Positions 40,936-42,175 of a stretch of 42,925 bases of DNA are shown here, one piece after another. The first letter of the stretch is position 1, and each line of letters starts with the position of its first letter. Both the position numbers and the translations under genes were made by a program. The notes beneath the pieces were generated by a model, which was given only the letters and a program-made list of their open reading frames with translations, made no database searches and was not told the DNA's origin. Source of the stretch: Escherichia phage DE3; the sequence record EU078592. One strand, 5' to 3'.

Positions 40936-41311
40936 CCGGAACGCCAACAGCACCAACCGCGCTCAGGGGAACAAACAATACCCAGATTGCGAACACCGCT
41001 TTTGTACTGGCCGCGATTGCAGATGTTATCGACGCGTCACCTGACGCACTGAATACGCTGAATGAACTGGCCGCAGCGCTCGGGAATGATCCAGATTTTG
41101 CTACCACCATGACTAACGCGCTTGCGGGTAAACAACCGAAGAATGCGACACTGACGGCGCTGGCAGGGCTTTCCACGGCGAAAAATAAATTACCGTATTT
41201 TGCGGAAAATGATGCCGCCAGCCTGACTGAACTGACTCAGGTTGGCAGGGATATTCTGGCAAAAAATTCCGTTGCAGATGTTCTTGAATACCTTGGGGCC
41301 GGTGAGAATTC
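40902..41311 (+). pseudogene. stf: Side tail fibre downstream segment (orf-314 5' part) in another frame, truncated at EcoRI site 41306-41311
   Basis: Hand translation shows this frame open from at least 40902, overlapping the orf-401 stop; ATG at 41109 (MTNALAGKQPKNATLTALAGLSTAKNKLPYF...). Confidence 0.8.
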
Positions 41312-42175
41312 TAAGCGGAGATCGCCTAGTGATTTTAAACTATTGCTGGCAGCATTCTTGAGTCCAATATAAAAGTATTGTGTACCTTTTGCTGGGTCAG
41401 GTTGTTCTTTAGGAGGAGTAAAAGGATCAAATGCACTAAACGAAACTGAAACAAGCGATCGAAAATATCCCTTTGGGATTCTTGACTCGATAAGTCTATT
41501 ATTTTCAGAGAAAAAATATTCATTGTTTTCTGGGTTGGTGATTGCACCAATCATTCCATTCAAAATTGTTGTTTTACCACACCCATTCCGCCCGATAAAA
41601 GCATGAATGTTCGTGCTGGGCATAGAATTAACCGTCACCTCAAAAGGTATAGTTAAATCACTGAATCCGGGAGCACTTTTTCTATTAAATGAAAAGTGGA
41701 AATCTGACAATTCTGGCAAACCATTTAACACACGTGCGAACTGTCCATGAATTTCTGAAAGAGTTACCCCTCTAAGTAATGAGGTGTTAAGGACGCTTTC
41801 ATTTTCAATGTCGGCTAATCGATTTGGCCATACTACTAAATCCTGAATAGCTTTAAGAAGGTTATGTTTAAAACCATCGCTTAATTTGCTGAGATTAACA
41901 TAGTAGTCAATGCTTTCACCTAAGGAAAAAAACATTTCAGGGAGTTGACTGAATTTTTTATCTATTAATGAATAAGTGCTTACTTCTTCTTTTTGACCTA
42001 CAAAACCAATTTTAACATTTCCGATATCGCATTTTTCACCATGCTCATCAAAGACAGTAAGATAAAACATTGTAACAAAGGAATAGTCATTCCAACCATC
42101 TGCTCGTAGGAATGCCTTATTTTTTTCTACTGCAGGAATATACCCGCCTCTTTCAATAACACTAAACTCCAACAT
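41306..42175 (-). pseudogene. ea59: ea59 5' fragment (N-terminal ~290 codons incl. Walker A GRNGCGKT); 3' part deleted at EcoRI junction
   Basis: Minus ORF 41237..42175 MLEFSVIERGGYIPAVEKNKAFLRADGWNDYSF...; sequence context changes at GAATTC. Confidence 0.8.

Follow-up and report, generated by a model that had tools for sequence, protein, structure and literature searches.

Septu systems are the closest described relatives of the locus considered here. Such systems consist of a two-gene operon in which an ABC/AAA_15-type ATPase, PtuA, comes first and an adjacent HNH nuclease, PtuB, comes second. In the canonical layout the ATPase head lies near the PtuA N-terminus and PtuB has ~215 amino acids. 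Our comparison includes the PtuAB effector of type I-A retrons (Eco7/Ec78 and Ec83). For E. coli Septu, the Walker A, Walker B and H-N-H residues are essential for defence (PMC13096335), and the PtuAB nuclease cleaves tRNA-Tyr (PMC13096335; PMC12445682). According to a review preprint, PtuAB assembles into a 6:2 complex, and its cleavage of phage DNA is controlled by ATP. Two further groups are relevant. PDC-M01 is a two-gene computational candidate in PADLOC; the two papers found to mention it are, judging by title and abstract, genome surveys. The OLD family (P2 Old, Gabija GajA and PARIS AriA/AriB) is recognised by a TOPRIM or DUF4435 nuclease, fused or adjacent to an ATPase of the ABC/AAA_15–AAA_21 superfamily. 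The lambda protein Ea59 belongs to the same superfamily.

In wild-type lambda, the stop codon of ea59 overlaps with ea31. Both genes are dispensable for lambda growth and are routinely deleted for cargo space. The RefSeq lambda record (NC_001416) labels ea59 'AAA family ATPase' and ea31 'HNH endonuclease'. Similarly, PHROGs describes the Ea31 family as HNH endonuclease and places Ea59 in phrog_8066. The first-pass annotation of the DNA analysed here stated that Ea59 had been reported as an ATP-dependent endonuclease. This is borne out by a table in PMC10695390, which lists ea59 under that description, and by a passage of PMC5241400 that cites Benchimol, Lucko and Becker (1982) for an endonuclease of lambda dependent on single-stranded DNA. 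In the text on the lambda yeast two-hybrid map, Ea59 is mentioned in one interaction only, for which no partner is given, and Ea31 is not mentioned. Our literature search found no paper linking Ea59 or Ea31 to Septu or phage defence.

We analysed a stretch of 42,925 bp, hereafter the window, which is the complete DE3 prophage of E. coli BL21(DE3) in prophage order. As set out below, it is very probable that the ea59 gene of DE3 is an inactive, laboratory-made remnant and that the intact Ea59–Ea31 pair is a conserved cassette related to Septu. The DE3 lesion is known and man-made, and BL21(DE3) is the expression strain in widest use. Public profiles and annotation already imply that the intact genes are defence-like. 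The apparent link between Ea59–Ea31 and Septu is new only to a small degree, and bears on wild-type lambda rather than on the DE3 window.

Layout of the DE3 prophage and origin of the ea59 truncation

The left end of the prophage begins with the att core GCTTTTTTATACTAA, followed by the 3' end of int, a BamHI site, lacI, T7 gene 1 and the remainder of int. On the right, the prophage runs to the final base of the attP P arm (lambda 27723). The ea59 remnant sits at this right end, adjoining attR and the host genes ybhB and bioA, which are found just beyond the prophage edge and are oriented inward. Approximately 2.1 kb around the remnant is 100% identical to positions 789195–791320 of the BL21(DE3) chromosome (NC_012971.2). 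The features of the locus are listed in Table 1. An Rfam scan of the whole window returned the cIII thermoregulator as its sole match, with none near the ea59 remnant. The record of phage DN1 annotates an 'antisense RNA' at the position of the remnant, an entry that has no Rfam support.

Table 1. Coordinates of features in the 42,925 bp window, with the corresponding lambda positions where available.
Feature	Position	Strand	Remarks
lacI	332–1423		inserted with T7 gene 1 at the BamHI site in int
T7 gene 1	2026–4677		inserted with lacI at the BamHI site in int
orf-314 remnant (C-terminal part of side tail fibre gene)	41109–41372	+	87-amino-acid ORF
Non-ea59 tail, 22 codons (SPAPRYSRTSATEFFARISLPT) and stop	41237–41305	-	antisense to orf-314; DNA equals lambda 21157–21225
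Deletion junction, EcoRI site GAATTC	41306–41311		joins lambda 21226 to 26104
ea59 codons 1–290	41306–42175	-	100% identical to lambda 26104–26973
Walker A/P-loop GRNGCGKT, residues 195–202	41570–41593	-	read from sequence
Untranslated region upstream of ea59, to end of attP P arm	42176–42925	-	100% identical to lambda 26974–27723
Strong hairpin and U-run between attR and ea59	42738–42787	-	lambda ~27537–27586

The ORF listing contains a single ORF at 41237–42175 on the minus strand, with an ATG start and 312 codons. According to BLASTP, residues 1–290 are identical to lambda Ea59 (525 amino acids; J02459, complement of 25396–26973) and similarity ends there. The product is labelled 'hypothetical protein' by RefSeq in BL21(DE3) (WP_000889232.1) and 'P-loop NTPase family protein' in other assemblies. 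A chance ORF was considered and is ruled out by 100% DNA identity to a known gene and by the RefSeq annotation. The first-pass annotation had assigned the entire interval to an ea59 remnant. The assignment stands for 41306–42175, which is identical to lambda; the final 69 nt are read-through and lie outside ea59. The same annotation had counted ~290 surviving N-terminal codons and placed a P-loop near residue 196, in agreement with the identity of residues 1–290 and the GRNGCGKT motif.

Hence, the remnant is the same gene as lambda ea59. The 290 codons and the entire upstream region are 100% identical, and the gene keeps its place beside the attP P arm. The difference lies downstream: residues 291–525 are replaced by 22 unrelated residues and ea31 is absent. 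On the opposite strand, the orf-314 remnant has ~67 authentic codons and then continues across the junction into antisense ea59. Its start corresponds to that of lambda orf-314 (lambda 21029, window position 41109), and the DN1 record annotates it as orf314. The two stubs thus converge and overlap on opposite strands.

The limits of the lesion were fixed by extension of exact matches to lambda. Window positions 38980–41311 equal lambda 18900–21231, with one SNP, and positions 41306–42925 equal lambda 26104–27723, with 100% identity. The two blocks share only the GAATTC hexamer at 41306–41311. Lambda has EcoRI sites at 21226 and 26104 in this region, and both ends of the deletion fall on them. 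The missing DNA is therefore the 4,878 bp EcoRI fragment between these sites. According to the J02459 annotation, this fragment holds most of orf-314, all of orf-194, ea47 and ea31, and the codons for Ea59 residues 291–525. The annotation and the exact-match junction confirm the earlier statement that the C-terminal half of ea59 and the neighbouring ea31 are deleted. Very probably, an ancestor of DE3 lost the fragment and its ends were religated at one EcoRI site. Religation fused 290 ea59 codons to 22 nonsense codons. The same event took out ea31 and ea47, together with the gene for tail-fibre assembly and the C-terminal portion of the tail-fibre gene itself.

The whole junction is present in 19 complete E. 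coli genomes, and the 15 listed are all of the BL21(DE3) lineage. In genomes of this lineage, an ea59–ea31 query aligns over its last 870 nt only, equivalent to 290 codons. In the phage collection the whole junction occurs in DN1 only. This phage was recovered from a lysate of BL21(DE3), and its record attributes the left arm to prophage DE3.

Could the truncation have arisen naturally, by spontaneous deletion in the b region or by pseudogene decay in a wild prophage? Spontaneous b-region deletions of lambda do occur, and there are other broken ea59 copies: that of phage O276 has a different length and that of strain ATCC BAA-196 carries an IS2 insertion. However, the DE3 deletion ends exactly at two neighbouring lambda EcoRI sites with a single GAATTC regenerated. 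Furthermore, among the matches listed, the junction is confined to BL21(DE3)-lineage genomes and the DE3-derived DN1, and the same prophage carries lacI and T7 gene 1 at a BamHI site in int. For a natural origin the probability is close to nil, and we regard this reading as effectively refuted. For the same three reasons, the ea59 truncation is an engineered EcoRI deletion, made in vitro and passed on by the lambda vector from which DE3 was built. We take this ancestor to be D69, a lambda cloning vector, and its deletion to be the one named srI-lambda-1-2. A literature search for the history of D69 found no paper describing the vector.

Predicted loss of function and probable low expression of the ea59 remnant

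The remnant spans the N-terminal domain of Ea59 (about residues 1–165) and the first half of an ABC-type ATPase head. Within the P-loop, residues G195, R196, N197, G198, G200, K201 and T202 are invariant across 26 Ea59 homologues. The remaining motifs are beyond the cut, namely SSGH at 365, LVLFDEPE at 387 and ATHSP at 423. Here too, the ABC signature (S365, S366, G367 and H368), the Walker B motif with its catalytic glutamate (D391 and E392) and the H-loop (H425) are invariant in the 26 homologues, which are 53–87% identical. A helical insertion divides the two halves of the ATPase head in the AlphaFold model of Ea59, and the truncation point coincides with its beginning. The remnant matches the PADLOC profile PDC-M01A (1.7e-95) over positions 2–294 of 510 only, and the PADLOC PtuA model PDLC00282 (2.3e-87) over positions 3–301 only. 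The full 525-codon frame, with its signature, Walker B and H-loop motifs, is not present in DE3. Because only half a head remains, and the helical insertion, signature, Walker B motif, H-loop and nuclease partner are all missing, the predicted product of the remnant cannot hydrolyse ATP or direct a nuclease. The first-pass annotation was thus right to call the locus disabled.

Expression of the remnant was also considered. Promoter scans of 42176–42925 found no σ70-like promoter on the ea59 strand. The sole terminator-like site reported by a terminator scan was weak and inside the ORF. Between attR and ea59, the strong hairpin and U-run listed in Table 1 has a predicted RNA folding energy of -24.3 kcal/mol (z = -4.7), and 0 of 200 shuffled sequences were as stable. 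We take this hairpin to be the tI terminator/sib site. Integration at att disconnects the b region, ea59 included, from pL in the prophage. The remnant is probably barely transcribed in the prophage, given the terminator hairpin and the lack of a recognisable promoter. The first-pass annotation had proposed comparing the phage sensitivity of lysogens with intact and deleted b regions. Such a comparison may be uninformative because ea59 is behind tI, has no recognisable promoter and is cut off from pL.

An alternative is that the 312-residue protein continues to be produced and that its N-terminal domain confers a residual or novel activity, for instance as a decoy or through binding of a trigger. 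The ~165 N-terminal residues are confidently modelled (pLDDT about 74–93). This unit recurs at the C-terminus of the PADLOC candidate PDC-S34 (3.6e-9), which suggests an autonomous module, and the ORF retains its start and its native upstream region. Conversely, the ATPase head is halved, which usually blocks folding, and the effector partner is gone. The ORF is also on a strand with no recognisable promoter, and a strong terminator separates it from host DNA. To our knowledge, four decades of BL21(DE3) use have indicated no such phenotype. We consider residual activity very improbable and retain the view that the DE3 remnant is inactive.

Comparison of intact Ea59 and Ea31 with Septu and OLD-family proteins

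The first-pass annotation had proposed an HMM search of full-length Ea59 and Ea31 from wild-type lambda against defence-system profiles, and named an absence of homology as the result that would count against it. The search gave strong matches. Ea59 matches PDC-M01A over nearly its full length (3.9e-201) and the PtuA model PDLC00282 over profile positions 3–518 of 520 (5.4e-184). Ea31 matches PDC-M01B over nearly its full length (5.8e-113). The PDC-M01 profiles are the top-scoring ones for both proteins. Wild-type lambda has adjacent PDC-M01A and PDC-M01B genes; the DE3 prophage has a partial A gene and no B gene. In Pfam, the C-terminal half of Ea59 scores above the cut-offs for AAA_21 and AAA_15, as befits a PtuA-type ATPase. 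Pfam searches with Ea59 residues 1–167 and with full-length Ea31 gave no match.

The Ea31 core scores below the Pfam HNH cut-off (17.9 bits against 21.4). Its invariant residues are C108xxC111, D121-H122, N138 and C143xxC146-N147. The arrangement reads as a zinc-finger HNH motif and, at the level of sequence, Ea31 is a definite HNH-motif protein. The earlier suggestion of an ATPase with a nuclease-like partner, as found in defence modules, is therefore supported for the wild-type pair by the PADLOC and PtuA matches and by the HNH motif of Ea31. In DE3, the downstream nuclease gene is deleted.

Comparisons with solved structures point in the same direction. Searched against PDB sequences, an Ea59-family profile had the PtuA chains of retrons Ec78 and Ec83 as its best matches (6.8e-7). 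The best matches of an Ea31-family profile were PtuB chains, at weak E-values (0.018 and 0.026). With single sequences, E-values against the solved structures were 1.6e-4 for Ea59 with PtuA and 0.18 for Ea31 with PtuB. The AlphaFold model of Ea59 has a mean pLDDT of 79.5. All of its top 25 Foldseek matches in the PDB were PtuA chains, with E-values of 1e-8 to 1e-5 and TM-scores of ~0.3; such low TM-scores are expected since Ea59 is a multi-domain protein with long arms. The E. coli Septu entries 8eea and 8ee4 are lower in the same list, and the OLD-family protein 6p74 is also among the PDB matches of Ea59. For Ea31, the model of which predicts the HNH core poorly, there was a single suggestive match, to the PtuB chain 9n6b_F (E-value 0.19, probability 0.72). 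A Foldseek search of viral structures with the Ea59 model found generic ABC ATPases only, and nothing for the N-terminal domain. Ea59 and Ea31 thus resemble the solved PtuA and PtuB only distantly.

The wild-type pair shares with Septu its two-gene operon, with the ATPase first, the HNH nuclease second and an overlap of stop and start codons. It also shares the conserved Walker A, signature, Walker B and H-loop motifs of the ATPase and the HNH motif of the nuclease. Conversely, the pair does not have the canonical Septu layout. Ea59 has an extra N-terminal domain of ~165 residues, so that its Walker A lysine is residue 201 rather than K43 as in Septu Ec-B88. Ea31, with 296 amino acids, is ~80 residues longer than the 215–216 amino acid PtuB chains; its HNH motif is in the middle of the protein and is followed by a long helical C-terminal extension. 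Furthermore, Ea59–Ea31 is phage-borne and, by inference, expressed early in the lytic cycle and not from a resident island. Finally, the pair scores below curated thresholds. For Ea31 this is the Pfam HNH cut-off noted above, and for Ea59 it is the NCBIfam PtuA equivalog NF041760, which gives 48.4 bits against a cut-off of 500.

The OLD family is a poorer fit. The C-terminal half of Ea59 is recognised by AriA profiles (2.1e-17), but compared with its matches to PtuA and PDC-M01A, those of Ea59 to OLD-family proteins are weaker by many orders of magnitude. In place of a TOPRIM or DUF4435 nuclease, fused or adjacent, the pair has the HNH motif of Ea31; PADLOC, Pfam and NCBIfam profiles found no TOPRIM domain in Ea59, Ea31 or Ea47. 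On present sequence comparisons, we would therefore file wild-type Ea59–Ea31 as a putative divergent branch of the Septu/PtuAB superfamily, equal to the candidate PDC-M01, and not as canonical Septu. The pair is placed as a distant branch, not as a retron-type PtuAB equivalog, because the curated thresholds are missed.

Distribution and possible role of the Ea59–Ea31 cassette

We surveyed relatives in a scan that took one genome per species. This found 352 relatives, and the best 80 loci were analysed. Fifteen of these 80 are lambda or near-identical, and the other 65 have 47–69% identity. The 65 come from Gamma-, Beta- and Alphaproteobacteria, Bacteroidota, one cyanobacterium, Desulfobacterota and a Saccharibacteria metagenome assembly. 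At every one (65/65), a homologue of Ea31 is encoded directly downstream of the Ea59 homologue and on the same strand, usually with a gap of 0–18 nt. The gene ea47 was considered as a third component and rejected: its product has no PADLOC, Pfam or NCBIfam match, and none of the 65 cassettes has an Ea47 homologue.

The surroundings of the cassette vary, and on integrase islands it has other conflict systems as neighbours. In E. coli it is found in an integrase/AlpA island next to a CTD1-MComp1-SMC_N three-gene system. In Vibrio parahaemolyticus it is part of an integrase-bounded island with DUF3987 and a DUF87 ATPase. The Serratia cassette occupies a cargo slot within the transfer cluster of a conjugative element (TraC, TraU and TraG), and that of Ectopseudomonas mendocina is a bare two-gene insertion between core genes. 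Within the phage collection, the cassette is found in lambda and its closest relatives only. The lambda version is essentially intact in 68 of 5,426 complete E. coli genomes, many of which are K-12 lambda lysogens. Movement of a two-gene cassette among mobile elements is what defence or conflict systems usually show. One Ea59 homologue, P0082, carries the source name 'phage Hau3 resistance protein'; among the best 10 of 56 matches in a literature search on HAU3, nothing was relevant to this name.

How might the wild-type pair work? By analogy, a PtuAB-like mechanism is most likely. Ea59 would oligomerise through its ABC heads and helical arms, and would restrain the HNH nuclease Ea31 in an ATP-dependent manner. 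A trigger would then release Ea31, which would cut nucleic acid. The target could be DNA, as in the 1982 biochemistry, or tRNA, as for E. coli Septu and retron-Eco7. An ATP-gated model of this kind agrees with the old description of an ATP-dependent, single-stranded-DNA-dependent endonuclease. None of this mechanism can operate in DE3.

The biological role of the intact pair is a separate matter. The Ea proteins are early lytic products of lambda, expressed from pL. Neither ea59 nor ea31 features in the list of expressed genes from a microarray study of lysogens (PMC1151598). On both counts, protection of the lysogen by Ea59–Ea31 is doubtful. These observations also speak for a different role. 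Instead of forming an anti-phage or conflict system, the intact pair would be an accessory nuclease of lambda DNA metabolism that serves recombination, packaging or the processing of host DNA in the lytic cycle; expression in the lysogen would be expected of a classic prophage defence gene. However, a function in lambda DNA metabolism sits poorly with the dispensability of both genes for lambda growth and with their restriction, in the phage collection, to lambda and its closest relatives. Nor does it fit the occurrence of the same gene pair across many phyla, on islands, in a conjugative-element cluster or alone, or the fact that the best profile and structure matches are the validated defence effectors PtuA and PtuB. 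We consider the DNA-metabolism role rather unlikely, at perhaps one chance in several.

Another possibility, to which we give somewhat less than even chances, is that wild-type lambda encodes a working, divergent Septu-like Ea59–Ea31 system with an extra, sensor-like N-terminal domain, expressed in lytic growth from pL and not in the prophage. Its role might then be to compete with other mobile elements or with phages infecting the same cell, and the ATP-dependent endonuclease purified in 1982 might be the first Septu-type enzyme to have been characterised.

For users of BL21(DE3), the consequences are practical. These strains carry only a dead ea59 stub and are without ea31, ea47 and the tail-fibre assembly gene. 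It follows that phenotypes of the lambda b region cannot be studied in DE3 lysogens. The stub deserves annotation as a pseudogene, rather than as a 'hypothetical protein' or 'P-loop NTPase'. For lambda itself, two classic 'non-essential' genes fit a defence-type ATPase–nuclease cassette, the pairing of which is conserved across many phyla. If wild-type lambda does encode a working Septu-like pair, DE3 strains and lambda vectors without this EcoRI fragment would be natural nulls, and Ea59–Ea31 could connect a divergent branch of Septu to the biochemistry of 1982.

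Features of the DE3 prophage

What is left of a side tail fibre gene, orf-314, runs over the EcoRI junction into antisense ea59. DE3 also lacks orf-194, which functions in tail fibre assembly. Because orf-314 is reduced to a stub and orf-194 is lost, DE3 is unable to make side tail fibres. Across the 3.9 kb compared with the lambda reference genome (J02459), the sole mismatch was a G at window position 40741, within orf-401, where lambda has A (position 20661).

Between attR and ea59 is a very stable hairpin followed by a U-run, at what is presumably lambda tI/sib. The host genes ybhB and bioA point inward toward the prophage. 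With this arrangement, the hairpin would shield the b region from read-through. The annotation of DN1, a DE3-derived phage, places an 'antisense RNA' facing the ea59 leader region on the opposite strand. Our Rfam scan of the window gave no match in this region; the cIII thermoregulator was the only Rfam family detected.

As a side observation, the S holin gene of DE3 is an unbroken ORF of 107 codons with no amber codon. This does not match the much-copied BL21(DE3) genotype string, which gives 'sam7' alongside 'ind1' (e.g. the strain table of PMC3149613).

Coordinates of features in DE3 and in related sequences
Feature	Location	Strand	Details
Lambda_thermo (cIII thermoregulator)	window 10144-10202	-	Rfam, 88.5 bits
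S holin gene	window 16764-17087	+	
orf-314 stub	window 41109-41372	+	joined over EcoRI junction to antisense ea59
'Antisense RNA'	DN1 MF374379.1 22494-22655 (about window 42574-42735)	+	DN1 annotation, by similarity to BL21(DE3) record
Hairpin and U-run	window 42738-42787	-	fold -24.3 kcal/mol, z = -4.7
ea59 stub, phage O276	MH547045.1 20738-21802		match from query base 1401, about lambda 25909
ea59-ea31 stretch, E. coli ATCC BAA-196	NZ_CP042865.1 3080792-3084592		contains IS2
242-aa ORF, E. coli island	loci L084-L088 9254-9982	+	ends 19 nt upstream of Ea59 homologue

Broken and lambda-identical copies of ea59-ea31

The ea59-ea31 cassette has been disrupted independently elsewhere. Phage O276 retains a longer ea59 stub, and in the lambda lysogen E. 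coli ATCC BAA-196 the cassette is interrupted by IS2.

Scanning one genome per species (best 80 of 352 loci) recovered copies 100% identical to lambda at L004-L013, L015-L017 and L024. The assemblies that hold them belong to unrelated taxa, among them Chromatiales, Shewanella, Pseudomonas, Oceanobacillus, Neobacillus, Bradyrhizobium, Kitasatospora and Paenibacillus. Several of these copies lie on ~48.5-kb contigs. Where the contig name gives coverage, it is about 1-2.5x, with one at ~10x. These copies look like contamination with lambda control DNA. The same region of 'Campylobacter phage CJLB-4' (MW057783.1; 48,361 bp) is also lambda-identical.

Names and neighbours of Ea59 homologues

One Ea59 homologue (P0082; 54% identical), from Ectopseudomonas mendocina, is called 'phage Hau3 resistance protein' by one source. 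We could not trace the origin of this name in the literature searched.

In the E. coli and Vibrio integrase islands that bear homologous cassettes, a further ORF precedes the Ea59 homologue. The 242-aa ORF of the E. coli island had no Pfam matches. In the Vibrio island, an ORF of 276-291 aa is found about 320 nt upstream. No counterpart exists in lambda. The upstream ORF could be an additional component in some lineages.
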